Origin: an uncultured virus (IMG/VR IMGVR_UViG_3300033148_004307) | Lineage: Duplodnaviria; Heunggongvirae; Uroviricota; Caudoviricetes | IMG/VR virus record: IMGVR_UViG_3300033148_004307 | DNA length: 64,000 bases | Reading direction: 5' to 3' (one strand) | Part shown: piece after piece, positions 1,870 to 63,278 of the stretch | How positions within the stretch are numbered: the first letter of the stretch is position 1 | Layout of the letters: each line of letters starts with the position of its first letter | Notes under the pieces: generated by a model | What the model was told of the DNA's origin: nothing | Seen by the model: only the letters and a program-made list of their open reading frames with translations | Databases searched by the model: none | Program-made: the position numbers and the translations under genes

Positions 1870-1914
1870 TTAGGCACTACATTTATTAATTGAAATGAAA
1901 GGAGAGGATTAGAT

Positions 1915-2880
1915 ATGCCACGAATGGAATCATTTGATGGAAAGAAAAAAACATCAGTAAAGGAACATGAAAGGAAAACAAAATCAGGGAAGAAAACCAC
2001 CGTAAAAAAGCACGATAGAAGATTAAATCCAAAGATGATAAACACATCTAAATTACAATCTATGGTCAGGCTAATAGGTGGGGATGCACATCTAAAAAGC
2101 AGAAAGAACCTAGAAGCAATTGCAGAGGATTGGTTAAAAATAGCTAATGATAAAGATAAAAATGCTATGATAAGAGTGATGCAATTAGATAAATTCCCTT
2201 ATGATGTAGGAGATTTCATTACTGTAAATGAGAAAGATGATGCAATCAGGAAAGGATATAAATTAGATGTGATAACATCACGACCCGACTCATTTAAAAT
2301 CGTAGGTAGAGAATTTCCAGCTATGGAGAGATATAAAGGAATGGAAGTATCAACAGTAGAAGATTCTCCAGATTACATGGGAAAATCTATTGAATTTAAA
2401 GATGGAAGTGAATATCTCATTTTTGATGATTTCGATATGGCAAAATCCGAAGCCTATTCAAAATTGAAAGATGATATAGAAAGAAATCCAAGTAAATATG
2501 ATAGGGATTCACTAATGAGGTCAGTAGATAAAGACGATTTGATAAGAAATTTATACTTCCATATCAAAAGCGATAGAGCATTTTATGATATATTCAAAGA
2601 TGAAGTGAAACCAAAAACCCAAGAACAATGGGATTCACATGAAGATTGGTCGCAATTAAAAGCCAATGAAATCTTTGGAACATCATCAGGTTATGATGAT
2701 TTAGCTAATTATGGAATAGATTGGAAGGAACAAATAGATAGTTGGGAAGTAGCTAATGGCATCATAGGTATTAATGGAGTCCACCAAGTATTGACAGGAA
2801 GAAAGAAAACTAAAGCTGGAGAAATAACAAAATTAAGAAATGGAAAGCACATATATCAAATCAGGATGGAGAGAAAATAG
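1915..2880 (+). CDS. Leader-family-1 protein, unknown body
   Basis: 321-aa ORF with the same leader and RBS. Confidence 0.85.
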   Translation: MPRMESFDGKKKTSVKEHERKTKSGKKTTVKKHDRRLNPKMINTSKLQSMVRLIGGDAHLKSRKNLEAIAEDWLKIANDKDKNAMIRVMQLDKFPYDVGDFITVNEKDDAIRKGYKLDVITSRPDSFKIVGREFPAMERYKGMEVSTVEDSPDYMGKSIEFKDGSEYLIFDDFDMAKSEAYSKLKDDIERNPSKYDRDSLMRSVDKDDLIRNLYFHIKSDRAFYDIFKDEVKPKTQEQWDSHEDWSQLKANEIFGTSSGYDDLANYGIDWKEQIDSWEVANGIIGINGVHQVLTGRKKTKAGEITKLRNGKHIYQIRMERK

Positions 2881-2931
2881 AATGGAAAAGTATTAGGCAC
2901 TACATATTAAAAGTAATGGAGAGGATTAGAA

Positions 2932-3606
2932 ATGCCAAAGTCAGAATCATTTGATGGAAAATGTAAAACTAAAGTAAGAGAACATGAGAGGAAAACACAA
3001 TCAGGAAATACTACTACAGTTAGAAAACATGATAGGACAATCAAATGCGAATCAGAATCAGATATGAGGTTAAATAGAAGTGGTTTTATAAACAGTTTAG
3101 GATGGAAAAAATCTGGTCGTAAAGTAGTAATGCCAAGAAAAGCCGACTCTGAATTATCATCTTTATTGGATGATTTATCAGTAAAATATGGCTTAGTAAG
3201 ACAAAATCTAACTAAAGAAGAATATGACAAAAGGATGTTATATTTGGTACATGAAACTTTAGAAGATGCTAATTATCACACTCCTAATAATAACCTTTTT
3301 GCAGAATTATTAGGTAGACCAGATTTAAAAGGAAGAACAAATTACGATACTGCCCCTAAAACTAAAAGTGGAAAGATAGATTTCGATTCAAAGGAATATG
3401 ATGAATGGTTTAATGAAAACACTATTTATGGAAAGAAATTTGAAGCAATCACATCAGAATTTGAAGGTTCTAATAATCTGGTACATGAACTTAACACCAA
3501 AGCAGAATGGGAAGGAACGAAATCGTTGGATGTAATATTGGATAAAATGAGAAAGGATGGAAGTTGTAAGTTGGCAAATGGAATACAAACATTATTTTAT
3601 GAATAA
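2932..3606 (+). CDS. Leader-family-1 protein, unknown body
   Basis: 224-aa ORF with the same leader and RBS. Confidence 0.85.
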   Translation: MPKSESFDGKCKTKVREHERKTQSGNTTTVRKHDRTIKCESESDMRLNRSGFINSLGWKKSGRKVVMPRKADSELSSLLDDLSVKYGLVRQNLTKEEYDKRMLYLVHETLEDANYHTPNNNLFAELLGRPDLKGRTNYDTAPKTKSGKIDFDSKEYDEWFNENTIYGKKFEAITSEFEGSNNLVHELNTKAEWEGTKSLDVILDKMRKDGSCKLANGIQTLFYE

Positions 3607-3636
3607 TGTTAGAATAGGCACTACAGGAATGATTCA

Positions 3637-3828
3637 ATGGTTAAAAAAAAAACGAATAGAAGTTTAATGGTTCTCGTATTGGTAGTTGGAATCATAGCAT
3701 TTCTTTTATCTCAATTGATTTTGGGAAATATTATTGTCGGAATATCAACATTAATAGAAAATATATCTTCAATTGTGATAAGTGTTGTAATTTCATATCT
3801 CGTAGTTTCGGAATTAAATAAGAAATAA
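3637..3828 (+). CDS. Small two-TM membrane protein
   Basis: Two hydrophobic stretches; follows motif A. Confidence 0.7.
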   Translation: MVKKKTNRSLMVLVLVVGIIAFLLSQLILGNIIVGISTLIENISSIVISVVISYLVVSELNKK

Positions 3829-3987
3829 TCAAATATCGAAAAATAGGCTACGAGAAACCTATCTTAATAGAACGAAAACAGGGAGAGCAATAATATGTAT
3901 CGGGGTGGGGTAAATAGCCTAAATACACCCCTTAAAGCCCTTTATTTATGGTATGAGCATCCATACATACATTTTATTTTTGTTGAA

Positions 3988-6276: not shown

Positions 6277-6423
6277 ATGGATTTAGTACACGCAATAGCA
6301 AATTGTGAAGAATGTAGCTGGACTTGTGGATATTTAAATTCTCTGTTATTAGCTGGAAAACACCATAAAAAAACAAAACACAGAGTTCATGTTGAATTGG
6401 GATATAGTCATACTATTGGATAA
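6277..6423 (+). CDS. C2H2 zinc-finger microprotein (48 aa, absent from ORF track)
   Basis: Manual translation MDLVHAIANCEECSW...GKHHKKTKH; RBS GAGG. Confidence 0.65.
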   Translation: MDLVHAIANCEECSWTCGYLNSLLLAGKHHKKTKHRVHVELGYSHTIG

Positions 6424-6623
6424 CAAGTTGGTGGATTTATGAGTGGATGTATATGTGGTGGTCAACACCAATTAAAAGAATGGACAGATGAAGAAATTAG
6501 CAAACATATCGAAGATTCTATGGATGGTAGTTGCATTGATTGTTGGTGTGGTACGCCATTCAGAGTAAAAAATAAAGAAAACAATGGATAACAAATTGGG
6601 TTCATTGTAACAGAGGGATAAAT

Positions 6624-7031
6624 ATGGGTACATATAATGATATTGAAGTAATGGAAATAAAATGCAAATGTGGGGATATTCTAACTATTCATGGGGATTG
6701 GTATGAATGTGAAAATATAGAAGAATGTGGAAAACAAATATTTGGATTCGATAGGTTAGATGAATACATAAATAATATGGAATTTCTCTACTGCGATAGA
6801 TGTATGAGTGAAAGAATCCAAATACATGAAAAAGGAAGATGGGATTGTGTAGATTGTGATGATGAGGGGGATGTTAGACAATTAATAGAACATAACAATC
6901 CAAAAGCAGTAAAATGTAATCTATGTAAAAAAAGATTCAAATGTACTTACCAAATATGCGATATTACAAATCTTGGATGCAAAGAATATGAAAATGAATA
7001 TCATAAAAAAACCGATATTGAAGATTTATAA
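6624..7031 (+). CDS. Cys-rich multi zinc-ribbon protein
   Basis: Several CxC/CxxC pairs; follows motif B. Confidence 0.7.
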   Translation: MGTYNDIEVMEIKCKCGDILTIHGDWYECENIEECGKQIFGFDRLDEYINNMEFLYCDRCMSERIQIHEKGRWDCVDCDDEGDVRQLIEHNNPKAVKCNLCKKRFKCTYQICDITNLGCKEYENEYHKKTDIEDL

Positions 7032-7158
7032 CAGGAGAGAATACATTAATTGTTAGTGTAAACGTAGGGGGTTTTTGTTCTAGGCGTACTAACCCACTTC
7101 GGCATTTATAACAAAATGTATGGATAATTAATTGGTGTGAATGTAACAGAGGGATAAT

Positions 7159-7680
7159 ATGAATGAAGATAAAATAAAATGTAAAAAATGTGGTAATGAA
7201 TACGAATGTTTCTGTGAACATTGTGGTAAAGAATTTAAAGATTGTAATTGTGATGATTTCTATAGTGATAGTCAATGGATATGTACTGATTGCGATTTAG
7301 ATTTAGCCAAGAATTGTAAGCAATATGGTTCATGTGAAGATTTTGATTTATGCCCATGTAAGCATTATGGTAATATGAATAACATATATGAAAAGAATGA
7401 AAAGTTCCGACAAAAGATTGGAAAACAGTTAAAAGAAGATTTCATTCAACCCAATATGAATGAATTTGAAAAGAGAATGGAGAAACTAATGGAAGAAAGG
7501 GAAATAAGAGAATCTATAATCTGCCCTTATTGTTCAAGTAAACAAGATAATGATGATAATCAATATCCTGTAACTTATTGGGGGGATGAAGGGGATGTTG
7601 ATTACGATTGTCTTAATTGCGAAAAAACATTCTTAGTAACTGAAAAAGTTACTAGAGAATATGAAACAAGTGAAAAATAA
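7159..7680 (+). CDS. Cys-rich multi zinc-ribbon protein
   Basis: Many CxxC; C-terminal CPYC...CLNC ribbon; follows motif B. Confidence 0.7.
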   Translation: MNEDKIKCKKCGNEYECFCEHCGKEFKDCNCDDFYSDSQWICTDCDLDLAKNCKQYGSCEDFDLCPCKHYGNMNNIYEKNEKFRQKIGKQLKEDFIQPNMNEFEKRMEKLMEEREIRESIICPYCSSKQDNDDNQYPVTYWGDEGDVDYDCLNCEKTFLVTEKVTREYETSEK

Positions 7681-7731
7681 TGATGAAATAAAGGAGAGTT
7701 ATTATATGGTCAATAGGAACAGAGGGATAAT

Positions 7732-7920
7732 ATGAAGAAAATTATGAAAACAAAAGAAATAATAATGACGAAAACCCCAAAAGCTACTTATGATGAATCA
7801 GGGGGAGAAATTAAATATTATTTAGTAGAGATAGATAAAGAAATATCAGAATTATTAGAAATAACCAATAAAACATTATTAGAAGTATCTATTAGAAAGA
7901 TTCTCCAAGTGGAAGAATAA
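7732..7920 (+). CDS. AbrB-like small DNA-binding protein
   Basis: YYLVEIDKEISELLEI...LLEVSIRK swapped-hairpin pattern. Confidence 0.45.
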   Translation: MKKIMKTKEIIMTKTPKATYDESGGEIKYYLVEIDKEISELLEITNKTLLEVSIRKILQVEE

Positions 7921-7933
7921 ACAGAGAGATATT

Positions 7934-8390
7934 ATGGAAGAAAATATTGCTGAAGTCGGAGTAGTATGTTATGATGAATTACGATTAGCTGGAAAGAAAT
8001 GGATAAAGAAAGATATTAAAGACCTAGCCAAATTAGACAACATCACTATTAAAGAAGCTAAAAAGAAATATAAAACATACATAAACAGATGGCTAAAAAG
8101 ATTCTGTTTAGATGAAAAAGCATTAAAATAATCGTATAACAAAATGGGTAATAGTTATGACCATAATAAAAATTTCTAAGAATAAAGCTAAAATTTATTG
8201 TAATATTTGTAATAATAAAGTAACTGTTGGTTTGGACAAAACTGATAATGAATTTTGGGAAATACCAGATGATTGGCAATATGTACTCACAGAAAATAAA
8301 CCAAACACAATACATATTTGTCCAAAACATAAAATTGAATTTTCCCAATTTGTCAAAGAATATATAGAATGGGCAAAAGATAAAAGTTAG
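7934..8390 (+). other. Two small hypothetical genes (7934-8131; 8157-8390 Zn-finger)
   Basis: ORF track, RBS. Confidence 0.65.
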
Positions 8391-8410
8391 GCACAACAGG
8401 AAGTGGTAAT

Positions 8411-8641
8411 ATGAAAACAATGATAGTAAGAGGAAAGATTTTACAATACTTTGAGAAAGTACCTCACGCTGATACCTATGAATTATTAGACTTCATCAAT
8501 AGAAGCACTAAGCATGGAGTAACAACACAGGCTATTGGAAGTATTTTATCTAATATGGCAAAGCAGAAATTGATAGTAAAAATATCAAGCTATTCAAGAA
8601 ATAGTGTAGCTATCTGGGGAAGAAATAAGGAACAGGGATAA
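8411..8641 (+). CDS. Winged-helix protein, DUF3860-like paralog
   Basis: TYELLDFIN-x3-KHGVTTQAIGSILS aligns with 41939-42187. Confidence 0.6.
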   Translation: MKTMIVRGKILQYFEKVPHADTYELLDFINRSTKHGVTTQAIGSILSNMAKQKLIVKISSYSRNSVAIWGRNKEQG

Positions 8642-8642
8642 T

Positions 8643-10146
8643 ATGAACAAAGAATTGAAAGAATTTCTATTAGAGAAAATAGATGTAATGATAAGAGAAA
8701 ATGAGGATAAAATCAGAGAATTGAATGGACAAAATCTTATGACTATGATTTATAAATTACCATTTCTAAATTCATACAAGATTCAAATTGGGCATTATCC
8801 AATAAGAAATCTAATTGAGGGTATAATCATAAAAGATTGATAATAATTCAGGATGAATTTAACATGAATAATAATACGAAACCAAAAAGTTGTGAAAATT
8901 GTTGTAATTATAATTGGTGTTATTCTAAGAAAAAGAAACCAAAAGCAGTATTGGGGCTAGATTGTTGGGGTTAAAATGAATAATGGATGTTCGATTAGGT
9001 TCTTTTGTGATAGTGTAAATACATTAGAAAAGTTGCATGGAGATAAATATGCTGACCAAGAAAGTTTTGATGAAATGACCAATCTATTGGGTCAGGTAGA
9101 GAAATTATATCAAAAATTAGATGATATAGAAAAATAACAATTGTGGTAATATGAATTGTGTGTTGTATCTTGATAATAAAGATAATGAATTTAATATCTG
9201 TAAACCAGATGTTTGTGATAGATATGGGTGTAGATTGCATCCATGTTATAGTAAAGAAGCAGAATTATTGGATTACGAATTTTCAGAAATGAACAGATGG
9301 AGTATCTGGTCAATACTATTATTGATTCATTTAAATTTAATGCCATTAATTATTCTTTGGATTATCAACACTAGAGAAATACATCTTATAATAAAAATTA
9401 TCTCTAATGCCATAGCAATAATATTCTTAATATGGTTCAATGTTGTAATCTATATGGAATGGAAATATTGGGTAGCTAAAAAACAAAAGATTAGAGAATT
9501 TTATAGTAACAAAATAGGCACTACAGAGGGATAATATGAAACTACATGAAGAAACCACGATAAAGGACATAATAACAGTAGGAATAGGAATAAGTCTAAT
9601 CGGATACCTATTAATATCTACATTCTTGTGGAATCGTGATACATTCCCAATTATAGCCTTTATAGTGATACTATCGTTTTCTATCAGTATTCCATTTTCA
9701 TTCGTTTATGTCTATTTTTTAGAAAGAAAAGAGAAAAGAGAATCATTTGATAATAGAATGGGGGAAGATAATGGGATTTGATGTAGAAAAACACATGAAA
9801 GAAGCAAGAGAATGGGATGAATTATTGAATGATTCCTGTGAAGAATTAGTAGAAAAACTATTCGGAAAAGATGAAAATATCTCTCATGTTGAATATACAA
9901 ATCATAAAGATAAGAAACAAATATTGATTGAATTGAGAACATAAAGGAATTGATAGCATGGATATAGAAAAAGAATCATCAAAGGTATTGCTTGAACTCA
10001 AATGTCCATATTGCAAGAGGGATATTGATTATTCAGATGTGAAATCAGTAGTGAGTAGTTATAGAGCTTTCTTAGATACATTTGAGAATCATTTAATTAT
10101 CTGTCCAAGTAGGAAGATGCAACAAACAATCAATAGTTATAATTAG
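8643..10146 (+). other. Run of small hypothetical genes (8643-8840, 9151-9534 membrane, 9536-9781 membrane, 9771-9944, 9958-10146 Zn-finger)
   Basis: Abutting ORFs with RBS. Confidence 0.65.
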
Positions 10147-10169
10147 GCACTACATATAAAAGGGATTAT

Positions 10170-10598
10170 ATGGATGAAAATAAATTAAAGGAAATTATCT
10201 ATAGAAGATACAATCAACAAAACAAAAGAGCAGAATCATTAGGTTTAAATTCAATTCCTCTCAGAGAATATGAAAAAATATTCCAAGAATCAATAGACAT
10301 TGGATTCTTATGTTGTTATTGTAGTATAAAATTAAATTTGTATAGTAAATATCCATATAAAGATACACCATCAATTGACCATAAAATCCCTCTAACAAAT
10401 GATGGCAAACATGAATTAGAAAATATGGTATTATGTTGTTATAAATGCAATATCATCAAAAGCACTATGACCGATAAAACATATAAAGAATTATTGAATA
10501 GAATTAATTATGATTTAGGATTTCTTAATACGATATTCAATGAGTTGGATAAAGGAAGAAAAGCTAGTTTAATTAGTAGGCATAATTCGGTTAAATAA
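10170..10598 (+). CDS. HNH endonuclease
   Basis: CxYC...SIDHKIP...N...CCYKCN-x2-K. Confidence 0.85.
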   Translation: MDENKLKEIIYRRYNQQNKRAESLGLNSIPLREYEKIFQESIDIGFLCCYCSIKLNLYSKYPYKDTPSIDHKIPLTNDGKHELENMVLCCYKCNIIKSTMTDKTYKELLNRINYDLGFLNTIFNELDKGRKASLISRHNSVK

Positions 10599-10621
10599 TT
10601 CTAAAAGTTAAAAATCAGGTA

Positions 10622-10714
10622 ATTGTAACACAACATTCTATCTGGTTACAATATATGTGCAATCGTAACATATATAAACCTTAGTATTGGTTACAAATAA
10701 ATACTATTGTAACA
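10622..10714. promoter_or_regulatory. Cluster of GTAAC/GTTAC inverted repeats (operator or att-like site)
   Basis: ATTGTAAC-N15-GTTACAAT at 10622-10652, further GTAACA/GGTTACAA arms to 10714. Confidence 0.5.
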
Positions 10715-10813
10715 TTCATAAAACTATTATTAGGTTGTGCAAATCACTATTTCGCTACATAAAGAGGAAAAGGTAGCATTGAAACCTAATGTGGTAAAAT
10801 ATGAGGTGGTAAT

Positions 10814-11521
10814 ATAGATAAAGAAACAAAAAAGGATAAAGGATTCTGGGTACAATATCATATTGAACGTAGAAATTCCGATAAAAAAGAATTTGGATAC
10901 AATTATTATCTATATGAAGATGGCTATAAAGAAGATGATGAAGAATCATTTAGATTGGAAGCTCAATCATGGGCAGAAAATGAAAAACAAATGTGGGCTA
11001 AAGATAGATATAGTTATGGATATGAAATTATAAAAGAAGCCCCAATTGATTATATTAATGAGAAAATAAAGGACACAATAAACGAATTAAAATATTGGTT
11101 ATCTTTCAATAAAAGTAATGAATATTATATGTTAAAATCCGATTTAGAACACTACGATAGAGAGAAAAAAAGAAAAGAATCATTTAAAGAAATTGAAAGT
11201 TGTAAATTTACAGATGAAGAATTAATGAAATTTGAAGATAATGACTATCCTGTGGGTAAGGATTGTTATCTTTGTATTTATGTAAATTGCCAACATAATA
11301 AAAAAAATTATAGAGAAAGATTTTCAGGTAAACATAAACACGATTCAGAATTTGATATAAATATGCCTGTATTAACATACAATGGGTGGGTACTTGGTAA
11401 TGAATGGGGTATATATTCAGCATATTGCGAAGAAACAAAACGATGGCTATCATTTGAATCAGAGGTTGAAATGGTATTCACAATAGACCTTTATATTCTT
11501 GCAGAAACAATAAGTGATTAA
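10814..11521 (+). CDS. Hypothetical protein; frame extends to an ATA at the canonical start position
   Basis: GGTGGTAAT-ATA at 10805-10816 is in frame with track ORF 10955-11521. Confidence 0.6.
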   Translation: MDKETKKDKGFWVQYHIERRNSDKKEFGYNYYLYEDGYKEDDEESFRLEAQSWAENEKQMWAKDRYSYGYEIIKEAPIDYINEKIKDTINELKYWLSFNKSNEYYMLKSDLEHYDREKKRKESFKEIESCKFTDEELMKFEDNDYPVGKDCYLCIYVNCQHNKKNYRERFSGKHKHDSEFDINMPVLTYNGWVLGNEWGIYSAYCEETKRWLSFESEVEMVFTIDLYILAETISD

Positions 11522-11536
11522 TTTAGGAGAAATAAT

Positions 11537-12040
11537 ATGCCGAAAGAACCACTAATGGAAGATGAATTTCAAAGAATCCTAAATTCATGCGAAAATGAAT
11601 TTGAAAAACAAACAATATTGATTTTAAGATACACAGGGATGCACATATCAGTTATTTGTGATAAAGAAAATGAATACGATATAGCATTTAAAGGTAAATA
11701 TATACATTGGTATAGACCAAAAACACATAATTTAGTAAGAATCCCAATACACCCAATCATTAAGCCATTCATCAAAGAATATTTTGAAAATGAGAGGGCT
11801 ATGTATAGAAATTATTACAATCGAATGATAACAGAAATAGGGAAAAGAGCAGAAATAGAAGGATTATCCCCTATGAGTTTTAGACATACTTTCGGAGTGG
11901 CATTATTGGATGAAGGGTACACAATGACTCAAGTACAAACAATGATGGGAGTAACAGATTTACAAGTGATTACAAGATATACTCAATACTCTGATAGACA
12001 AATGGAAGCAAAATGGAAAGATACAGGATGGTTAGAATGA
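11537..12040 (+). CDS. Tyrosine recombinase-like protein, catalytic domain only, atypical active site
   Basis: LRYTGMHISV, RPKT, MSFRHTFG, VQTMMGV-x5-ITRY. Confidence 0.85.
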   Translation: MPKEPLMEDEFQRILNSCENEFEKQTILILRYTGMHISVICDKENEYDIAFKGKYIHWYRPKTHNLVRIPIHPIIKPFIKEYFENERAMYRNYYNRMITEIGKRAEIEGLSPMSFRHTFGVALLDEGYTMTQVQTMMGVTDLQVITRYTQYSDRQMEAKWKDTGWLE

Positions 12041-12130
12041 AAGAAGATAAAGATTACGAAATACTAATAAAAGCATTAAGAAAACAATTCTTAAATGAAG
12101 AATAAAATAGGTACTACAGGAGAATTAAAT

Positions 12131-12307
12131 ATGCACAAAGAACCAATAAGTGTTAGATTTACAGTAGAAGATGATAAATTAGTTAGGATGATTGCTGATA
12201 GAAAAAGAATGGACTTATCAAATTTAATAAGAATGGCTACATTTTACTTTTTTGAAAAATCAGAATTTCTTTCAAATAAAGAAAAGAAAAAATACAGATT
12301 GATATGA
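12131..12307 (+). CDS. Ribbon-helix-helix regulator
   Basis: ISVRFT...IADRKRMDLSNLIR. Confidence 0.7.
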   Translation: MHKEPISVRFTVEDDKLVRMIADRKRMDLSNLIRMATFYFFEKSEFLSNKEKKKYRLI

Positions 12308-12329
12308 ACAAAAGATAAATGGTGGTAAT

Positions 12330-13106
12330 ATGGTAACACACATCAGAATAAAAGAAAAAGATAGAGAAACAATCCAATCAATTAAATTATTAGATGAAAA
12401 TGATAAAGATTTTTTATCAAGAATAATAAAAGAAAAAAAAAGAGAATTAGAATCTAATGATAATAATATGTATGAACTAGATGAAGAAATATATTATGGA
12501 TGTATAGATTCAATTCACAATCTTATCGAAAAGTATGGAACTAAAAAAATAAAGTCATTATTAGTCAGGGATTTAAAAATTTATTCTAGTATTGATAGTA
12601 AAGATGTTTTAAAATATGGTATGAATTTCAATGCAATAGGACAATCAAGCATTAAAAAATTAAAAAATGCCCATATATCAAAAACAATTGTGAATAAAAT
12701 AGAAATGGAAGTAGAATTAAACGAATCGGAAAAATCAGTATTACATGATAATGGATTAGAATTGGTCTATAGTCAAAAGAGATTTTCATTTGTTAGGGTA
12801 TATAGTGGAAAAACTGACAAAAGGATGGAGAATTTAGAACTAGCCAATAAGAACAATCCTAAAAAAATAGAAATAGAGCAAATAAAAGTGGATAAAGAAA
12901 CACTTGAGAAAGTAAGAATCTTCATTATGAAATGTATAAACAATAAAAATCACACATTACAGGGAATGGCATTAAGTGGTTTAATACAGAAAGGAAAAGA
13001 GAATGGAATAGACAAAACTATTATTAAAAAAGTATTGGGGAATTTATTATATAAAAGTATTATAACTGAACATAAGAAATTCAAATATAAAATAGTACCA
13101 GATTAG
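12330..13106 (+). CDS. Multi-module protein sharing a central domain with 58105-58758
   Basis: RHH-like N-terminus, shared domain, wHTH-like C-terminus. Confidence 0.65.
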   Translation: MVTHIRIKEKDRETIQSIKLLDENDKDFLSRIIKEKKRELESNDNNMYELDEEIYYGCIDSIHNLIEKYGTKKIKSLLVRDLKIYSSIDSKDVLKYGMNFNAIGQSSIKKLKNAHISKTIVNKIEMEVELNESEKSVLHDNGLELVYSQKRFSFVRVYSGKTDKRMENLELANKNNPKKIEIEQIKVDKETLEKVRIFIMKCINNKNHTLQGMALSGLIQKGKENGIDKTIIKKVLGNLLYKSIITEHKKFKYKIVPD

Positions 13107-13130
13107 GCACTACAATAAGGAGAAATTAAT

Positions 13131-13463
13131 ATGGCAGATGAAGAATTTGAATATGGAAATACTATTGGATTAGATACATATCTTAAAGAGAAAGTATGTA
13201 AAAAATGTGTATATAAAGAAAAGAAAGTATGTTCTTATACAGATGAAGATGATGATTCAGATGAAACAGATTGGTGTGAGGCAATCGACCAATTAAGTAA
13301 TTTATTCGAGAGAGTATTTGATTTTAGAAACAAATTTATAGAAAAATTTGACAAATTGGAAGATTTATTTGATATAGAACCAATGAAAGAACAAACAGAT
13401 TTCATAAAATATCAAGAAAATTTCATTAAAGAAAATAATATTAAAATTCTGGATAACAATTAG
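13131..13463 (+). CDS. Hypothetical acidic protein with Cys cluster
   Basis: ORF after motif A and RBS. Confidence 0.7.
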   Translation: MADEEFEYGNTIGLDTYLKEKVCKKCVYKEKKVCSYTDEDDDSDETDWCEAIDQLSNLFERVFDFRNKFIEKFDKLEDLFDIEPMKEQTDFIKYQENFIKENNIKILDNN

Positions 13464-13488
13464 GAGTAATTATATCAATGGTGGTAAT

Positions 13489-13851
13489 ATGAAGATTAAT
13501 GATTATGGAATTGATGAAAAAGAAGAATACTATATAGACATTCACACAGAGGATAAAGAGGATGAAAAATATTTAGAATTAATGAACAATCTCAAAGAAG
13601 GTACAAAATGCGATTTATTATTGGTTCAATACGAAGAAGGATTCTCATTTCACATGAAAAATAGAAAAAATAATAATAGTTCTATAGAAATTGAAGTACC
13701 AGAAATGATTGAAAATCATCTCAAATATTTAGAAAAAAATGGATATGGTTCTGTAAGTGAAATAATACTGTCAAGTGGAATGATTGGAAATATCATAGAT
13801 ATTTATAATATGGTTAGACAGGAAGAAATAAGGGAAAATAATACTGATTAA
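13489..13851 (+). CDS. Hypothetical protein with C-terminal RHH-like module
   Basis: C-terminus paralogous to 22639-22818. Confidence 0.6.
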   Translation: MKINDYGIDEKEEYYIDIHTEDKEDEKYLELMNNLKEGTKCDLLLVQYEEGFSFHMKNRKNNNSSIEIEVPEMIENHLKYLEKNGYGSVSEIILSSGMIGNIIDIYNMVRQEEIRENNTD

Positions 13852-13890
13852 TGGATAACAATAGTGGGTAATAGTAACAGATGTGGTAAT

Positions 13891-15135
13891 ATGGCAAATA
13901 AAAAACAAGTGAAAAATATAAGTATATTTGAAAAAATATTAAAGAAGATGGACATTGAAGGTGGGAATAAAGAAGATTATGTCAAGATAGCAAAACATGA
14001 TATTTTCGGTGGTGGGAAAATCAATATTACACTTGGTGGAATGGGTACAGGAAAATGCAATATGTTAATTGGTATGGCTACAGAATTAGTAAAATCAACA
14101 GGATTTGAAGTCATTACTAATATCGGATTGAGTAAAAAATTAAGGTCTAGGAAAATCCACGATACTAATTGGTTTTCAGATATGTTGAGAATTATATGTA
14201 GAAATAAAATAGCCAATCTACATAGAAGTGAAAAGGAAAAAAGAATAATTGTTTTAATGATAGATGAATCTGAACCATTTTTCTACTATAGAGGGAAAGT
14301 AGTAGATATAAATTTATTGAATAATTTTGCTAGGAAATTTGATTGTTCTTTCACTTTCATATTACATAGGGCAGAGGATTTACCAGAGGAAATAAAGAAT
14401 AATCCTAACCTGAATTGCTTTATTCTTAAAGGGTATGATAGCAATTTAAATGAGATAAACACAACGATTGAAATAGATGGGGAAGAAAAAACAGATATTA
14501 AAAAATTAAATAGAATACGAAAAAGAGCAAAATTTTATTTTAGACCCATCAATACAGAAATAAATATTAATGGCATACCAGAATGTGAATATTATGATTT
14601 TGAAGAATACTCACATTTTGTAATTCAAGATGTAAATCATATTGAAAAATCAGTAAATCTTGATAAGATATTAGAAATATCTATGAATAATAAATCTTAT
14701 GTTGCCCCACGAAAAATAATAGAATATCTTGAAAAAGATTGGGTCTATGCTAGATATAAAATAGAGGATATAAGATGCCCAGATTATAATGAAGATGTAT
14801 TTGCAGAATGGGGAATAAGTAGATGTGGGGCTATAAAAGATTCAAAAATATTGAATTATTCTTGTAATATATTATTATCAAATTATAAATGCCCCAGAAA
14901 GAAAAGTATGAAAAAACTATTGTATGAAAGTTTAACAGGAAGAAAAATAACATCCCCATATAAAATATGTGGAAAAGAAGAAATAATATTGGAAAAGATA
15001 TTGATGGAATTATCTAAAGAAAAAAAAGATACAAAGAAAATCAAAGAATTAATTGACAATCTGGGAATATTTTATTATGGTAATGAAAAAATCATTAAAT
15101 TATCTGAAACATTAGAAATAAAACAAGAAAAGTAG
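13891..15135 (+). CDS. P-loop ATPase (viral extrusion/Zot-like class possible)
   Basis: Walker A GGMGTGKC, VITN strand, Walker B VLMIDE. Confidence 0.7.
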   Translation: MANKKQVKNISIFEKILKKMDIEGGNKEDYVKIAKHDIFGGGKINITLGGMGTGKCNMLIGMATELVKSTGFEVITNIGLSKKLRSRKIHDTNWFSDMLRIICRNKIANLHRSEKEKRIIVLMIDESEPFFYYRGKVVDINLLNNFARKFDCSFTFILHRAEDLPEEIKNNPNLNCFILKGYDSNLNEINTTIEIDGEEKTDIKKLNRIRKRAKFYFRPINTEININGIPECEYYDFEEYSHFVIQDVNHIEKSVNLDKILEISMNNKSYVAPRKIIEYLEKDWVYARYKIEDIRCPDYNEDVFAEWGISRCGAIKDSKILNYSCNILLSNYKCPRKKSMKKLLYESLTGRKITSPYKICGKEEIILEKILMELSKEKKDTKKIKELIDNLGIFYYGNEKIIKLSETLEIKQEK

Positions 15136-15159
15136 TTAGGCACTACAGGAGAGATATAT

Positions 15160-15654
15160 TTGAAAGCATATATACAAATTATGACAGAATCGAAGGAATT
15201 GTTGGATGAAATTAAATCAAAACTTGATGAAATTGAAGAAATTAAAATTTATAATGACGATATATTAGAGTTAAACCATGTAACAGATTTAAATAAAAAA
15301 ACTAACCAATATCATTTGACATACATGGGTAAATGTAATAGATATGATAGATATAAACTTGGGGATGAATTATTAATGGATAAGGAAATAGAAATTCTGC
15401 AAGTATTTAAAAGAATAGAAAAGGATTCCATCAATAACGAAATTAATACTTCAAATCCATATCTCAAAAATGATATTGAAAATAAATTAAAAGAACACAA
15501 ATTCAAAATTAACTATATCTCAGATTTGGTTAAGAAACACGATAAGAATTTTGATATTATAAAATATCAGATTAAATTATTAAACGAATATAAAAATATG
15601 TCAGATAATCCAGAATATTATGAAAAAGCTATTGAAGAATTAGAAAATAGTTAG
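15160..15654 (+). CDS. Hypothetical protein
   Basis: TTG start after RBS; bounded by motif A on both sides. Confidence 0.7.
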   Translation: MKAYIQIMTESKELLDEIKSKLDEIEEIKIYNDDILELNHVTDLNKKTNQYHLTYMGKCNRYDRYKLGDELLMDKEIEILQVFKRIEKDSINNEINTSNPYLKNDIENKLKEHKFKINYISDLVKKHDKNFDIIKYQIKLLNEYKNMSDNPEYYEKAIEELENS

Positions 15655-15962
15655 GCACTACATGGTGGTAATATGGAAGAAAAAGAAAGGTAGATTAAAT
15701 GAAAACTATAGAAGTAACAGATGAATTTTATAGCACTTTAAAAGCTATGATGAAATTTAAATACGAAGGTAGTTGTACACACGTTTTGAAATGTATGATT
15801 AATGATAATGGTAATTATAGTTTCAAAGTGCATATAAATATAAAAAAACATGATAGAATGAAAAATCATTTTAGAACTTTATAGAGAAAACAGTTCTTAC
15901 ATCCTAAATATGAGTGTAAGAATGAAAAAGAAAATAATAGTTAGGTATAACATTGTGGTAAT

Positions 15963-16418
15963 ATGAATAACAAAAACTTAAAAATCAATCAAATCGAAGC
16001 GAAAAATAATGCTATTAAACTAAGAGAGAAAATCATATTTCTTTTAGAAGAAACAGAGGTATTAAAATTTTGGCAATTTAGATATATATTATTGAAAAAA
16101 AATCAATTATATGTTATTAATGATTCTAAAAAGAAATGGGATTTTGATATGCTGATTAAAGGAAAAAAACTCGATTTTTATAGAGATAAATATTGCGAAT
16201 TTAATAATAGCTTATCAAGTTTTAACAATATATTAATCAATATGATAAATGAAGGTTTAATAGATAAGGAAGGTAAAACATATCGTAAAGGAAAATACAT
16301 TGATATATTATTTTTAAAATATAAAATAAAACCAACATTCAAAAAAGAAATTGAATATATTGAAATTGATACTGATACATTATTAGAAATATCAATAAAG
16401 AAATTAATGGATGGTTAG
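15963..16418 (+). CDS. Winged-helix-like protein
   Basis: SFNNILINMINEGLIDK wing pattern. Confidence 0.45.
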   Translation: MNNKNLKINQIEAKNNAIKLREKIIFLLEETEVLKFWQFRYILLKKNQLYVINDSKKKWDFDMLIKGKKLDFYRDKYCEFNNSLSSFNNILINMINEGLIDKEGKTYRKGKYIDILFLKYKIKPTFKKEIEYIEIDTDTLLEISIKKLMDG

Positions 16419-49011: not shown

Positions 49012-49055
49012 ATTAAATATAGAAGAATAATTTAATGGATAACAAAGGTGGTAAT

Positions 49056-51836
49056 ATGAGGTCAGATGAAAATATATGTATCAATTGTGCTTATTGTATT
49101 AATGTAACTCTCGCTTTCAAAGATGAACATGGAAATGGTATTGGGAAAAAACGTAATCAATATTTTTGCAATTCAGATAAATATGGTGGTAATTGTGAAC
49201 AATTAAGTGAATATCGTTTTCCTGTAAAGAAATGGGATGAAATATACGATTGTGAATCATTTAAGTGGGGTAGACCTAAAAAAATGTTTGTATATGTTGG
49301 AATACCTAAACATACACATCCCAAATCCAAAAAATAAAAAATAGGTGGTAATATGGATGATGAAAATACAGTAAAAATATATCAAGTGGATGCAAACAAT
49401 AATAAAATGTTCTTAGTGGCATCTGAAAAGATAGCTATAAAATTATGTAAAGAAATGAATGTAAGAAACAGAGCATTAGAGCAAATGAGGAATAAAGGAG
49501 AAACCGAGTTGAAATGTGTATCAATTTATGAAAGAAAATGGACATACAAAAGAGTATGGGTGTATAATGATGTATCCTACATTCTTAAAAACTGTCCACT
49601 CTTGATTGAACCAGAGTTGGTAAAATGATTGGAATATTATTATTTGCCTATCTTTTAATTGCATGGGGTGTCATAACTTTATCATATAATTTATACAATA
49701 TGGCTACAATCAATAAAAGATGGAAAAACCGTATGATGAAGTCAAAGAATGAAAATCACTAATTAGGCACTACAGGAGAGATTTAGAATGACAACTATTG
49801 ATGATATTGAAAAAGAAGAAATGTATGAAGATAATTTAGAAAAACCAAGAGCAAAACATATTGACCATGTACGAGTCAAAATGATTAGATTAAATGACTT
49901 GAAGCAAATGGCAATAGATTGGAGTCAGGAAGATATAAGGGAATTTGTAGATAAAATCTATTTAGAGTATCTAAAACTAAGTGGAAAAGATACATTATGG
50001 GATTTTGGAGAGTATTGTATTAAGCAATTCTTAAATGATAAATTCAGGACATTGAATTGAAAGATATGGATAACAATCTAGGTAATTTGTAACAGATGTG
50101 GTAATATGGAACATGAAGAAACGATAAAAATAAATGGATATAGTGTTGGGGATGAATCAGTAGGGATTGCATCTATTGAATTTGCCCTAGATACAGGGCT
50201 AGAACAGATAGATGATGAACAAAGACAATTCATAAGAGAACACATACTCCAGAACATAGAAGAATTGCACGATAATGGAAAATTGATTTATCATTATTCA
50301 GATGATGATAGTGAATGGTAATATGACTCCCGATATAATTATAACTGTATCTGATAAGGCTTATAAGAGGCTAAAAGAGATAGCAGAAACCAAAGAAGTA
50401 TCAATAGAGGAAGAATCCTTCAAGTACACTATGAAATGGCTAAATAATGCCTCTAATGAGCAATTCCAAGAGAAATTAAAAAGTGTTAAGCAATACGCAA
50501 TCAAAAAAAAAGAGGAAAAATGGTTCAGTAAATATCCACTACAATCATACATCCTACAAAAATATAAGAATGGAGTAGAAAAAATATTACAATGGAGAAC
50601 AGGCAGAATCCCAGAATTTTCTATCCATCCTTATTATTATGATAAATGGGGATTGTTTTATTGCAAAATACACTTACAGAAACCAAGTGGAATATTTACT
50701 TCAATAATGAAAGATTCTGAAAAATATTATACATTCAAAACATTAAAGGCATTGAAAAGGAAAGTAAATTCATTATTTGGATATGAACATTACAAAGTAA
50801 AGTAGGTGGTAATATGGCAATTTGTAAATGTAAATCAGAACCAAGAGGTTCTAATGGCTTAGAAGGTTTCATTCTTAATAATAATTATTATTTTAAAATG
50901 ATAAACTATGGCAATAATAGATATGTCAGGATATTTCTGTCAAAGGATTATTCTGAAAGATGTGGAATAAGAGTATTTCAAAAATACTTCAAACAAATAC
51001 AAAATAGTTAGGCACAACATTAAAGGAGAAATAAGGGGAAATAAAATGGTAAATGAAAAATATTGGAACATAAATGGATATGGATATAGAGGGGTGGATT
51101 CAAAAGAGGCACTTGGGAAATATGCAGATGATTTTCTCGATAAAGCTAAGATTGAAAGAGAATACCCCATTGTATTTAAAAGAATATCAAAGAAGGTATT
51201 TGATAGCTATGCAAAGGGATGATTAATATGAGCTTTGATGAATGGGAAAGACGAAGGAACATTGATATGGCGAAAGATTTTCCATACAGGGAATTTTTAT
51301 CAGATGATGGAGTAAAAACATTCTCTCCAAAACCTCAATATGTGAGGGGTGGAGAATTATTCAAATGTCCATTTTGTGATTTTAAATGCTCTAGCCATAG
51401 TTATAATTGCTATAGAGGATTTGAGGAAGCAATATTGGAACATATTGGAGAAAAACATGAATGTCCACATAATTATGATTCATGTGGGTTGAATTGTGGT
51501 AAATTCAGGATAACAAAAGAAGGAAATAAGTGTACTTTAAAAGATAAAGTAAATTAGGCACTACAATAAGAAGGTGGTAATACAATGGATAATGTAATTA
51601 TGTATAAGATAGACAAAATCAAGATGTTTATGATTGGAGAGGAAAGGAACAATGCAGAAACAATCATAGAGATAATGAAAAAAGAAGGATATGAGGTAGT
51701 ATATCTGATTGATGAATTGGACTTAATGACAGTAAAAAAGAGGAAGGTAGTTCATTTTGTTAAGAAGAATAAATTGGAAAAATTAGAAGTTGATAAAGAA
51801 AATAAAGTAAAGATAAATGAAAAAGATAGAATCTAA
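49056..51836 (+). other. Array of small hypothetical genes (49056-49337, 49353-49628, 49788-50060, 50106-50321, 50323-50805, 50814-51011, 51228-51557, 51585-51836)
   Basis: Abutting + ORFs with RBS and motif A/B linkers. Confidence 0.7.
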
Positions 51837-61137: not shown

Positions 61138-61179
61138 ATGGATTTTAATAATATTATGACTTAAATAAGAGGAATAAGA

Positions 61180-61404
61180 ATGGGAATGACAAAAAGAATA
61201 GCTAAAAAGTTAATTGGGGGATTTATACTCATCAGTATTGTAAATATCCTAGTTACAAATTTTATTCTAGGATTAGGCATTACATTCAAAGTAGGATTTT
61301 TAGATTTTTCACAGTTATTTACATCAATTTTACTGACCATAGTCAGTTTAATTGAATTTGTATTTTTATATGTAATAGGATTCGGATTCGGGGGTTCAAG
61401 ATGA
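61180..61404 (+). CDS. Small two-TM membrane protein
   Basis: Hydrophobic, RBS GAGG. Confidence 0.7.
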   Translation: MGMTKRIAKKLIGGFILISIVNILVTNFILGLGITFKVGFLDFSQLFTSILLTIVSLIEFVFLYVIGFGFGGSR

Positions 61405-62009
61405 AAATAAGATATTATATTATGGTTATTCTATTGTTATTGGTTTCTATACCAACAACCTCAAATGTAAGAGCAGATGATATTGCAACAATATATGGGG
61501 TAGTTAAATTAGATGGCAATAACGTAGAAAATGCAGAAATAAAATTAGAAAATCTGGAATTAAGCTATATAGTTATTGTATTCACAGATGAAAATGGAGA
61601 ATATGAAGGGGAATTAGGAGTCAGGGCACATAATGAAATAAAAGTTACTGCAACAGTAAATAGTACCATTTTTAGAAGTGTTACATTTACTAGAAGTTCA
61701 GATATACATGAATACGAAGTAAATTTCCTATTCGGAGAATCGGGGAATGGAAATGGGAATGGAAATGGGATTATTAGAGATAGTTTTGTATATATAACTG
61801 TATCATCATTCTTAGGCGATTTATGGGCATTTTTAATAAGTCTAACAATGGTCGATTGTTTATTATTTTTATTGATTTTATTGGTATTGTGCATACTATT
61901 CAGATTACTATTCCCAAAAAAGCCCAAAAGAAAACAGAGAACACAACAACAGGATAATGACACCATAATACTCCTAACAGGGAATGGGAAGGTTAAGAAA
62001 TTACGTTAA
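61401..62009 (+). CDS. Signal-peptide membrane protein with carboxypeptidase-regulatory-like beta domain
   Basis: IYGVV...VENAEIKL...TDENGEY; C-terminal TM and basic tail. Confidence 0.7.
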   Translation: MKIRYYIMVILLLLVSIPTTSNVRADDIATIYGVVKLDGNNVENAEIKLENLELSYIVIVFTDENGEYEGELGVRAHNEIKVTATVNSTIFRSVTFTRSSDIHEYEVNFLFGESGNGNGNGNGIIRDSFVYITVSSFLGDLWAFLISLTMVDCLLFLLILLVLCILFRLLFPKKPKRKQRTQQQDNDTIILLTGNGKVKKLR

Positions 62010-62045
62010 AGGGGGCTTAAAATTAAAATCCGAATACTATCAATA

Positions 62046-62573
62046 TTGTTTTTTATTTTTGTCTTAATAAATATCCCTACAAATTCTAAGGCAGAAACAG
62101 ATTGCACAATATTGACAGGATTGGATGATTATGTATCATTTAGTCCAGCTATTAGAACCAATAATACATTCGGTTATAATAATCTTGAGTTCAGATTATA
62201 TAGTACAGAAAACAACACCCCATATAAAATTATTGTAGACAACATCACTATTGGAAATGGAAGTATAGATTATTTTAAGAAATATGTGTATTGGGATTGT
62301 GAGCAAGAATATATAGAAAATCTAACAGTAATTGTAGGGGAAGATTATTACAGTTATTATAATATTTTTATTTTTAGAAGTTCATTTTATAATCAATCAG
62401 ATGATGATGGAATAGAATATAATATTAAATTTACAAAGGAAGAATTTGAGGCATATCTTAGCACATTAAGATTAAAATTATTTTTTACAGATATTAGTGG
62501 ATTAATACTTGGAATATTGGTATCAACATATTTCATAAGAGAACATAAAAAAACAGTTATTAGAGAGATTTAG
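62046..62573 (+). CDS. Secreted/anchored beta-rich protein with C-terminal TM (start uncertain)
   Basis: Signal-like N-terminus, C-terminal TM. Confidence 0.65.
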   Translation: MFFIFVLINIPTNSKAETDCTILTGLDDYVSFSPAIRTNNTFGYNNLEFRLYSTENNTPYKIIVDNITIGNGSIDYFKKYVYWDCEQEYIENLTVIVGEDYYSYYNIFIFRSSFYNQSDDDGIEYNIKFTKEEFEAYLSTLRLKLFFTDISGLILGILVSTYFIREHKKTVIREI

Positions 62574-63278
62574 ATGGTAGGCACTACAAAAAATGATACA
62601 AATCAAATCCAAGAAAGAACAGTAGTGAAAACTACAGAAAAATTCAGATTATTCTCTAAAGCATTTAAATGGTTTTTTATAGTGGTATTTTGTATTATCG
62701 GACTTTATATATTATTCTTAATATTCGGTGGTTATATATTTGGAAGTTTCTTTGTTTCAATTATCATATCATCCATTGTACTTTACAACACAATCACTGT
62801 ACCATCAGAAAGATTTGTTGAAAGCAGAATGGAAGAAAGTTTTGATGATGATGGGAATAGTGAGGGTATAACCCTCTTATTCAATGAATATGATATTCCT
62901 GTAGATTTATTGAAGGAATTTGGATTAACAGGAGATAACCAAAATGGAAAATGGAAAAGTAAAAATGGCAAATCAAGAGAATTAGTAGAAAAAATTGATT
63001 TCATCAATAGGAAAATTAAGTATTCGTGGTTTGCAGAATATTCTACATGGAAATTTATGGTTGACAAAGCAACATTATTAAGTTTAAATGAAACAGTAGC
63101 TAGGAGTCAGAGAGATTTAATGCGAAGCCCAGAAATTGAAGTTATAAGATTACAAGAAATCTCCTTAAAAGAACAAAAAGAAATGTCAGATAATCCAGAT
63201 GGTTATGATGATGCTTTAACAGAAGTGTCCAAAGATTTAACACGAACTAGGGGGAAGTTAAAAGATGATAAAAGATGA
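62574..63278 (+). CDS. Two-TM protein with cytoplasmic domain and coiled-coil tail
   Basis: Hydropathy by eye. Confidence 0.75.
   Translation: MVGTTKNDTNQIQERTVVKTTEKFRLFSKAFKWFFIVVFCIIGLYILFLIFGGYIFGSFFVSIIISSIVLYNTITVPSERFVESRMEESFDDDGNSEGITLLFNEYDIPVDLLKEFGLTGDNQNGKWKSKNGKSRELVEKIDFINRKIKYSWFAEYSTWKFMVDKATLLSLNETVARSQRDLMRSPEIEVIRLQEISLKEQKEMSDNPDGYDDALTEVSKDLTRTRGKLKDDKR

Follow-up and report, generated by a model that had tools for sequence, protein, structure and literature searches.

The uncultured virus catalogued in IMG/VR as IMGVR_UViG_3300033148_004307 (Caudoviricetes) is represented here by a stretch of 64,000 nucleotides (nt), which we refer to as the window. The window has a G+C content of 29%, its + strand is strongly purine-rich with C making up only 10% of the bases, and nearly all of its long open reading frames (ORFs) lie on that strand. 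A rough gene model made for this analysis places 161 genes on the + strand, mostly of 40-250 codons and separated by very short spacers. Threaded through these genes is an 11-bp word, TAGGCACTACA (hereafter M1), which recurs in one orientation at gene junctions, directly ahead of ribosome-binding sites (RBSs). Here, we describe its copy number, its polarity, its sharp 11-bp boundary, its fixed place before the RBS and a subset of copies with a TATA-like box in register, and we tentatively interpret M1 as a DNA control site for transcription.

Exact matches to M1 number 47 in the whole 64-kb window, 46 on the + strand and one on the - strand (57630-57640), compared with none in 100 dinucleotide-preserving shuffles. 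Allowing one mismatch raised the count to 59, comprising 58 copies on the + strand (46 exact and 12 one-off) and the same lone - copy, while shuffled sequences gave a mean of 0.43 and a maximum of 3 at this stringency. The original prediction, made from the bare sequence, had counted about 58 co-oriented copies (46 exact) and a single reverse copy and placed them far above chance, and these counts bear it out. A second mismatch added only nine copies (68 in total) against a chance expectation of 8.0; two-mismatch copies are thus at chance level and the family is sharply bounded, with an all-or-none distribution (46 exact, 12 one-off and about 0 beyond). The first + copy starts at 1871 and the last at 62578. 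In a position table of the 58 + copies, each column of M1 is at least 91% conserved, whereas the columns beside it carry 0.0-0.5 bit each, and no further conserved column was found up to 30 nt upstream or 45 nt downstream. The flanks show only a weak T-A-A-T/C preference at -4..-1, in part due to stop codons, and a G-rich stretch 3' of M1, which is the RBS. The same table revealed no inverted partner or hairpin at M1. The G+C content of M1 is 45%, well above that of the window, and 6 of the 12 one-mismatch variants are C-to-T changes. Because M1 is near-invariant, its flanks are unconserved and 58 copies face one way against one, the word itself appears to be directly recognized. M1 is probably read by something highly specific, in a single orientation and at the 5' borders of gene units.

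The position of M1 relative to genes is equally regular. A start codon lies 0-36 nt 3' of M1 in 48 of the 58 copies, and in 41 the distance from the end of M1 to the start is 10-19 nt, with the RBS (GGAGAGG, GGTGGTAAT, GGATTGAT or GAGGGAT) beginning 0-8 nt past M1. On its other side, the TAG inside M1 is the stop codon of the upstream gene in 21/58 copies, and a stop lies 4 nt upstream in 9 more. M1 therefore mostly sits between a stop, often its own TAG, and the next RBS, as originally predicted. Only 12 of the 58 copies fall wholly within modelled coding sequence, compared with 86% of 11-mer positions (p=2e-28), and five of these 12 (5127, 9515, 18252, 18790 and 22208) occupy the last codons of the upstream ORF with the next start close 3'. 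M1 can thus be embedded in the end of an ORF and still stand next to the following start, which ties it to the downstream start and argues against its being intergenic filler. Five other copies lie deep within ORFs (29196, 29700, 31577, 46298 and 61274). By region, 31 copies fall in 1-31916, 24 in 35990-57000 and 3 in 57000-64000, which holds a membrane-protein module, and none was found in 31917-35990, which contains a non-coding origin region and a Rep-like gene; the predicted absence from the Rep gene and sparseness in the membrane module were both recovered. Copies are spaced by 1065 nt on average, on one strand throughout and on both sides of the iteron origin. Between successive copies there are 1-3 modelled gene starts in 42 of 57 intervals, in agreement with the earlier proposal that M1 delimits units of one to a few genes, and junctions without M1 or the second word described below are mostly overlaps or spacers of at most 10 nt. 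M1 probably marks the 5' edge of about 50 expression units, each of one to a few genes.

The individual copies are given below as coordinates followed by the distance in nt from the end of M1 to the modelled start, which is ATG unless stated; all copies lie on the + strand except 57630, and all are exact unless a variant is named. The TAG of M1 serves as upstream stop at 10144-10154 (15, ahead of an HNH gene), 13104-13114 (16, with a TATA-like 8-mer at -19), 15652-15662 (36), 17590-17600 (17, between both genes of the paralogous block A described below), 19822-19832 (12), 20427-20437 (10), 23184-23194 (17), 24822-24832 (variant TAGGCATTACA, 49), 25567-25577 (16), 30407-30417 (18), 38107-38117 (12), 38695-38705 (14), 41916-41926 (12), 45107-45117 (12), 48087-48097 (11, at the left edge of an extra gene in block B), 51009-51019 (variant TAGGCACAACA, 26), 51555-51565 (19) and 56926-56936 (12), as well as at 31906-31916, which is followed by the 1.9-kb non-coding origin region. 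Copies listed with a following start are 1871-1881 (33), 2894-2904 (27), 3615-3625 (11), 4691-4701 (variant TAGGCATTACA, 17), 8388-8398 (variant TAGGCACAACA, 12), 12108-12118 (variant TAGGTACTACA, 12, TATA-like 8-mer at -19), 15137-15147 (TTG, 12), 16529-16539 (10), 24143-24153 (17), 35995-36005 (variant TAGGCATTACA, 15), 39491-39501 (17, TATA-like at -19), 39863-39873 (12), 41361-41371 (10), 42743-42753 (13), 42922-42932 (13), 43253-43263 (12), 43399-43409 (variant TATGCACTACA, 12), 43901-43911 (16), 44070-44080 (19), 45647-45657 (variant CAGGCACTACA, 12), 46606-46616 (11), 49764-49774 (13), 52484-52494 (16-25, TATA-like at -19) and 54524-54534 (15, ahead of the gene for a 792-amino-acid (aa) protein). 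The copies in the last codons of an upstream ORF are 5127-5137 (64), 9515-9525 (10), 18252-18262 (1-13), 18790-18800 (GTG, 5-14) and 22208-22218 (17). Those deep within ORFs are 29196-29206 and 29700-29710 (both in ORF 29018-30409 and in the same reading frame, the former with no start near), 31577-31587 (variant TAGGCATTACA, in ORF 30436-31908, TATA-like at -19), 46298-46308 (in ORF 46011-46421, TATA-like at -19, no start near) and 61274-61284 (variant TAGGCATTACA, in a membrane-protein ORF). Finally, 57995-58005 (variant TAGGCACTACT) is intergenic with the next start 99 nt away, and 62578-62588 lies at a gene boundary with an uncertain start codon. Three further copies at 28-29 kb and the reverse copy are described below.

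A second word, TGGATAACAA (M2), occupies the same place at other junctions. Its 15 exact copies, all on the + strand, span 6417..50076, with starts at 6417, 6585, 13450, 13852, 16794, 19268, 19453, 23463, 23871, 26532, 46813, 46972, 47455, 49036 and 50067, and all except that at 19453 lie between a stop and the following RBS. M2 junctions come in a short form, 10-18 nt ahead of the ATG, and a long form, 27-29 nt ahead (29 in 8 of 9 copies), in which a second box, WGTAACAG, stands directly before the RBS. M1 and M2 junctions are intermixed from one gene to the next, and no terminators separate them. Among the genes without M1, 35/111 have an AACA starting within -24..-12 of the ATG, compared with 11% expected (p=1e-8), with a peak at -15. 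This enrichment indicates a general junction grammar of stop, ...WACA, RBS and ATG, of which M1 and M2 are two extended versions. The RBS itself is also stereotyped, since an RBS-plus-start sequence, GGTGGTAATATG, has 23 exact copies (e.g., 15663-15674, 16540-16552 and 47465-47477) and TGGTAATATG has 37, with none on the - strand, and at several junctions M1 and the RBS together form an identical stretch of up to 26 nt. RBS flavors are regional, with GGAGAGGATTAGA at 1-3 kb, GAGGGATAAT at 6-9 and 19-23 kb and GGATTGAT at 39-47 kb. M2 and the pre-RBS AACA enrichment are new to this analysis, as are the TATA-like box at -19 and the RBS-less ATGs that abut M1, both described below.

The element is probably an archaeal plasmid or virus-like replicon, an assignment with moderate support from the archaeal affinity of its Rep-like protein and a recombinase that leans toward XerA. 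The Rep-like protein (529 aa; gene 33843-35432) belongs to Pfam family DUF7845. In PLSDB, tblastn matched it only to a winged-helix gene carried by a plasmid of the haloarchaeon Salinibaculum, a tblastn search against phages gave no match, and Atlas clusters with DUF7845 are 88-90% archaeal, one of them labelled as an HGPV-1 ORF14 homologue. The recombinase (167 aa; 11537-12040) consists of a tyrosine-recombinase catalytic domain with no N-terminal domain, and its best NCBIfam match is archaeal XerA at 52.2 bits, below the 220-bit cut-off of that family. Just upstream of the Rep-like gene, about 24 iterons (ACTGTTCGGTCTTTTT, in part with an AGCATCTGGR spacer) form a 380-bp array at 33398-33779, the probable replication origin. 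Searches of Pfam, PHROGs and NCBIfam left most window proteins as ORFans, and scans of the window for tRNAs and against Rfam returned no match. The 792-aa protein has a weak likeness to bacterial and phage DUF3560 and polyvalent proteins (template modelling score by query at most 0.33 in the Atlas).

Archaeal promoters carry a TATA box centered near -26/-27 of the transcript start. We scanned each offset upstream of the 58 M1 copies with a degenerate archaeal TATA 8-mer (match of at least 7/8) and found a single peak, exactly 19 nt upstream of M1, where 10/58 copies have a TATA-like 8-mer over a background of 3.5% per position. Three of the five copies deep within ORFs belong to this subset. 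The link between M1 and TATA is modest and concerns a minority of copies; given archaeal promoter geometry, a box at -19 of M1 predicts that transcription starts on the final A of M1 or one base later.

The clearest TATA-bearing copies lie at 28.0-28.9 kb, where a promoter-like unit (TAGGGTGGGGTMAAA ... GAAAGTATTTTATAGTTC) occurs twice, each time followed by M1. The first repeat of this region (28215..28311, +) reads TAGGGTGGGGTAAAA ... GAGAAAGTATTTTATAGTTC ... M1, and the second (28774..28877, +) repeats it 559 nt further on. Two paralogous Zn-ribbon genes (28030-28206 and 28878-29021) have an ATG that adjoins M1 with no RBS: the exact copy at 28019-28029 precedes a 58-aa gene with TTATATA at -30..-24 from its ATG, and the variant TAGGCACAACA at 28867-28877 precedes a 47-aa paralogue with TTTTATA at -30..-24. 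These M1-abutting ATGs have the layout of leaderless archaeal transcripts, in which, if the predicted promoters are correct, M1 would occupy -11..-1 on the DNA, outside the RNA. The exact copy at 28301-28311 lies 5 nt past TTTTATA (28289-28295) and 19 nt before its ATG; here the box is 6 nt closer than in the other unit, which would put M1 at -18..-8 and predicts a 12-nt leader that begins at the RBS. In these three units, M1 thus sits 5-11 nt 3' of the TATA-like box of a predicted promoter, between the box and the predicted transcript start. This interval is a common site of archaeal repressor action. The register of M1 to TATA varies among the units, which suits an operator better than a determinant of the start site.

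Other transcription signals are scarce. T-runs and hairpin terminators are almost absent from + strand junctions, and scans of the window found 2 intrinsic terminators against 3.3 expected and 129 sigma-70 promoters against 150 expected (i.e., no enrichment). A few long spacers carry hairpins, TATA-like boxes and TGTATAC palindromes. With few terminators and no sigma-70 enrichment, transcripts are expected to read through most M1 copies, and the default is likely to be long read-through transcripts from a few conventional promoters.

We tentatively favor the interpretation that M1 is a DNA control site for transcription of the operator or stoperator type. What points this way is the set of TATA-bearing copies, including those inside ORFs, together with read-through arrays that would suit a polar roadblock. 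We infer that M1 acts on DNA rather than RNA, and we likewise infer a binding factor, its origin and the direction of its effect. In this model, one sequence-specific factor, probably encoded by the element, would read M1 on DNA and control transcription. At TATA-bearing copies, the factor would sit at roughly -11..-1 of the promoter (once at -18..-8), a repressor or promoter-proximal position, with the transcript starting at the final A of M1 or immediately downstream. At TATA-less copies in co-directional arrays, the bound factor could act as a polar roadblock, or M1 could mark a weak internal start. The accessory gene load might thereby be silenced or released together, as in the network of mycobacteriophage L5. 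Of the interpretations offered by the original prediction, a stoperator-like binding site for a regulator fits best, as M1 is asymmetric, near-invariant and co-oriented, occupies short junctions and, in the units above, lies between TATA and the predicted start.

Stoperators offer the closest precedent for such a network. L5-type phages have 20-30 asymmetric repressor sites along the direction of transcription, a few of which are operators in promoters while most are stoperators that block elongation (PMC6550527). The window likewise has tens of asymmetric sites along transcription (58 on + and 1 on -, with all modelled genes on +), and a minority of M1 copies may lie in promoters, to judge from the predicted ones at 28.0-28.9 kb and the TATA-like 8-mers at -19. 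The parallel with Cluster A phages (L5 and Bxb1) thus extends to many short, asymmetric, transcription-oriented and element-specific sites, with 58 sites of 11 bp here and 20-30 sites of 13 bp there (PMC6550527, PMC9283540). Unlike in L5, the host of M1 is probably archaeal, the density is about twofold, and family searches found no candidate repressor; moreover, M1 keeps a fixed position immediately ahead of the RBS, a position taken at other junctions by a second word.

Several observations weigh against the operator interpretation. Most copies (48/58) lack a TATA-like box at -19, and under a stricter control that used gene ends without M1 and a 3-offset window, the enrichment fell to 11/58 compared with a mean of 9.1/118 (Fisher p=0.04). 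Since the two RBS-less copies precede paralogues whose upstream sequences are also homologous, they represent one evolutionary event. Positional counts depend on the rough gene model. Regulator families were absent from the 75 proteins searched in Pfam (those of 90 aa or more), the 75 searched in PHROGs and the 51 searched in NCBIfam. An N-terminal 45-aa module (MSYIR...YYY...GKKV.QK..KYWGT) is common to the 463-, 490- and 792-aa proteins (29018-29240, 30436-30660 and 54550-54774) and is predicted to form three strands and a helix (predicted local distance difference test score 78); its best VIA-align match, an integrase arm-type DNA-binding domain, has a Z of 3.6, below the meaningful bar. 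The protein at 47011-47454 has a weak winged helix-turn-helix (wHTH) likeness. Foldseek returned no match for the module at E of at most 0.001, relaxed Pfam searches with the N-terminal modules and the Zn-ribbon genes gave nothing meaningful, and a sequence search of the PDB with three large ORFans gave nothing. Finally, the adjacency of M1 to the RBS, the existence of M2 and the AACA enrichment fit a role at the RNA level equally well.

A role of M1 in mRNA, although unlikely in our judgment, is therefore the main rival, and it explains the strict RBS adjacency and the shared ACA grammar better than an operator does. M1 could (a) be cut by an endonuclease, (b) bind a factor that represses or activates translation or (c) pair with an antisense RNA. 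Under (a), cleavage of long polycistrons would leave each unit with a short, uniform leader immediately ahead of its RBS. Zhang and Olsen reportedly found in 2009 that M. jannaschii mRNAs are processed 12-16 nt before start codons. In favor of a role in mRNA, M1 always stands on the coding strand immediately ahead of the RBS, with 41/58 copies ending 10-19 nt before the start, and the scarcity of terminators and canonical promoters means that long M1-containing transcripts are expected. M2 and the AACA peak at -15 in genes without M1 suggest a common ...ACA/RBS grammar in RNA, but the three TATA-bearing units place M1 upstream of the predicted transcript start, and the five copies deep in ORFs are far from starts. 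The all-or-none conservation of M1 (46:12:~0) is what base-pairing would give; C-to-T changes in 6/12 variants would preserve a G.U pair, but mutation in an AT-rich genome is also expected to be biased toward such changes. Searches of Pfam, PHROGs and NCBIfam revealed no RNase or RNA-binding family among the window proteins.

The reverse copy of M1 (57630-57640, -) bears on option (c). It lies in a 209-nt intergenic leader that heads the membrane-protein module, about 90 nt 3' of a TATA-like tatataaaatata and 9 nt before ATG 57650, the normal RBS position. A + strand RNA from this transcribed-looking leader would carry the only M1 antisense word in the window and could pair with all M1 mRNAs beside their RBSs, which would provide an early-to-late switch. 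However, folding of the leader around the reverse copy revealed no significant structure (z = -1.8 and -0.7).

The start-associated sequences (SAS) of Cluster K mycobacteriophages provide the nearest likeness for an RNA-level role. SAS are 13 bp long, occur in 11-19 copies and contain a Shine-Dalgarno (SD) core 3-7 bp from the start; they precede non-structural genes, are absent from the host, sometimes contain the upstream stop and have no known function (PMC3203893). In four of these phages each genome has one reversed copy, which is not tied to a gene, and a role of SAS in translation is suspected (PMC3203893). Like SAS, M1 is short, asymmetric, located before starts and in one orientation bar a single reverse copy (PMC3203893), and its distribution (58 on + and 1 on -, with no copy in the Rep/origin region and 3 copies within the membrane-protein module) resembles the SAS preference for one orientation and non-structural genes. 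Unlike SAS, M1 has 58 copies, lacks an SD core, lies upstream of a separate G-rich RBS with the start mostly 10-19 nt away and is not accompanied by inverted repeats like those of the extended SAS (ESAS).

We consider it improbable that M1 is itself a compact, TATA-independent promoter or initiator, in which about 50 units would each have their own start at the terminal CA of M1 and TGGATAACAA would define a second class. Such a code would need either an unrecognized element-encoded polymerase or initiation factor, or a host polymerase redirected by an element factor. Archaeal transcripts start at a pyrimidine-purine dinucleotide, which the terminal CA provides; leaders running from the end of M1 to the ATG would always contain the RBS, ATG-abutting copies would yield leaderless mRNAs, and two distinct words in one place would be readily accommodated. 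On the other hand, no polymerase, TFB, TBP or sigma-like protein was found in the window, which leaves out ~14 kb of the 78-kb contig. The G+C content of M1 (45% in a 29% G+C genome) is unfavorable for melting, the register of TATA to M1 differs between 28301 and 28867, and M1 and M2 junctions are intermixed without intervening terminators. Gene-front repeats are promoters in some archaeal viruses: the intergenic repeats of halovirus HF2 were shown to be promoters (PMC8707807), and the repeat of SIRV2 early genes comprises a core of TFB-recognition element (BRE) and TATA box plus a putative repressor site (PMC11065993). Like these virus-specific repeats, M1 stands before many small genes of a mobile element, here a probably archaeal one, but the HF2 and SIRV2 repeats, as described there, are 29-58 bp or longer with an AT-rich TATA/BRE core, whereas M1 is a bare 11-mer with no conserved column upstream and a TATA-like box in register in only 10/58 copies. 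A comparison with T7-like promoters found no polymerase family among 75 proteins and conservation over 11 bp rather than about 17-23 bp; an apparent resemblance of M1 to T7/SP6/K11-type promoters was dropped because alignment needs gaps.

The original prediction also offered M1 as a crossover site for cassette shuffling, and for this part we found no positive support. That M1 is a crossover point at which site-specific or microhomology-driven recombination shuffles, inserts or deletes cassettes strikes us as very improbable, even though the element is a mosaic of very small ORFan genes, M1 plus RBS offers up to 26 nt of identity at several junctions and a small XerA-like recombinase is encoded at 11537-12040. 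M1 has no inverted-repeat core, spacer or foldable attC-like structure, and the recombinase is a catalytic domain only, far below the cut-offs for XerA and for integron integrases (29.2 bits compared with 265 bits for TIGR02249 in NCBIfam). A better candidate for a recombination site is a set of five alternating TTGTAAC/GTTACAA boxes in both orientations upstream of the recombinase operon (10620-10715), which are possibly a site for the recombinase or a regulator. A TTGTAACA box of this region recurs within long M2 junctions. Co-oriented units of small genes with a recurring separator do recall integron attC arrays, but M1 lacks the imperfect inverted repeats and folded single-strand structure of attC and sits 5' of the next RBS, and repeat scans of junction-rich regions found no attC-like inverted repeats. 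With no attC hairpin, flanks of 0.0-0.5 bit and no integron-type integrase, the element is not a canonical integron, as had been predicted.

Boundaries between paralogues also do not single out M1. Four tandem genes at 20-3606 have the same RBS and first 37-41 codons (70-84% identity) and unrelated C-terminal parts; one pair (20-547 and 2932-3606) is 44% identical over 86 aa. Their homology begins ~20 nt before the ATG, only 3' of M1, and two of the four lack M1. Block A (17056-18283; two genes) recurs as block B (47475-49011) with protein identities of 40% and 53%, and block B has an extra 78-aa gene flanked by M1 (48087) and an M2-like word. A cassette-type indel could have produced this arrangement, but so could any other viable indel of a gene, which must hit a junction, so it proves nothing about M1. 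Least probable of all is a one-strand signal for DNA metabolism (lagging-strand priming, or the orienting of a DNA translocase or packaging motor). In its favor, the copies keep to one strand along the entire element, left and right of the iteron origin, at a mean spacing of 1065 nt. Known polar sequences of this kind, however, lie mostly inside genes, whereas M1 avoids coding sequence (p=2e-28) and is locked 10-19 nt before starts even where this forces it into the final codons of an ORF.

A few actinophage clusters have dense, polar control sites specific to the element (stoperators and SAS), and some archaeal viruses have longer promoter repeats. Full-text literature searching, which covered neither the word itself nor the host group, turned up no case of a bare 11-mer standing at a third of all gene junctions in an archaeal-type element. 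If M1 is indeed a repressor site, stoperator-style global silencing would extend beyond Actinobacteria, and M1 would provide a handle on how large, ORFan-rich archaeal plasmids and viruses keep ~160 small genes quiet. If M1 instead sets the 5' ends of RNAs, expression units would be delimited by a very compact signal that could serve as a genetic part, and under a promoter code nearly every small gene unit would have a private transcription start. M1 would also provide a list of co-regulated units in a nearly all-ORFan element, and an 11-bp oligonucleotide is a simple bait for the factor.

We scanned public collections, IMG/VR with four patterns and both a set of 185,579 species-representative genomes and the JGI metagenomes with one each, and found no M1-bearing relative. 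M1 followed by GGAGAGGA had 0 loci in viral contigs. The pattern M1-N(3-25)-GGTAATATG matched 7 viral, 3 genome and 14 metagenome loci with one copy each, none of which resembles the window by blastn; M2 plus RBS matched 9 viral loci with one copy each, and TTAGGCACTACAGGA matched 92 viral loci. Among the 101 loci from L026 upward, 15 carry at least two copies at one mismatch or fewer, and in seven inspected multi-copy loci most copies are coding sequence, either (L/I/V)-G-T-T-G repeats or conserved genes. In the IMG/VR loci L042, L066, L079 and L118, the 11-mer mostly encodes (L/I/V)-G-T-T-G repeats in unrelated viral proteins. Such coding repeats explain chance matches to the 11-mer elsewhere. 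Searches with other parts of the element were similarly sparse: related loci were not found in viral contigs, blastn of 33000-38500 against phages and tblastn of the recombinase against plasmids gave no match, and a set of 5.8 billion proteins contained three homologues of the Rep-like protein and one of the 792-aa protein. MT836525.1, the best match of a DUF5131 protein, was rejected as a relative, having 0 copies of M1 at two mismatches or fewer and a G+C content of 38.6%.

Additional repeats and structured sequences lie outside the M1 family. The 1.5-kb non-coding stretch at 31917-33400 contains 36-54-nt repeats bounded by TGTATAC palindromes and several T-runs, and a second, inverted set of about 8 iteron units lies at 52742-52886 within ORF 52511-53266. 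TGTATAC palindromes also flank a TATTTAAA box at 3990-4045, upstream of the gene at 4060. Hairpins with a G-rich 5' arm, either of the GGGGTGGGGT type or AGGGGCT...AGCCCCT followed by TTTTT, occur at 42490-42525, 38425-38450, 3895-3935, 28215-28260 and 57480-57525. These hairpins resemble operon ends, and TATA-like boxes follow several of them.

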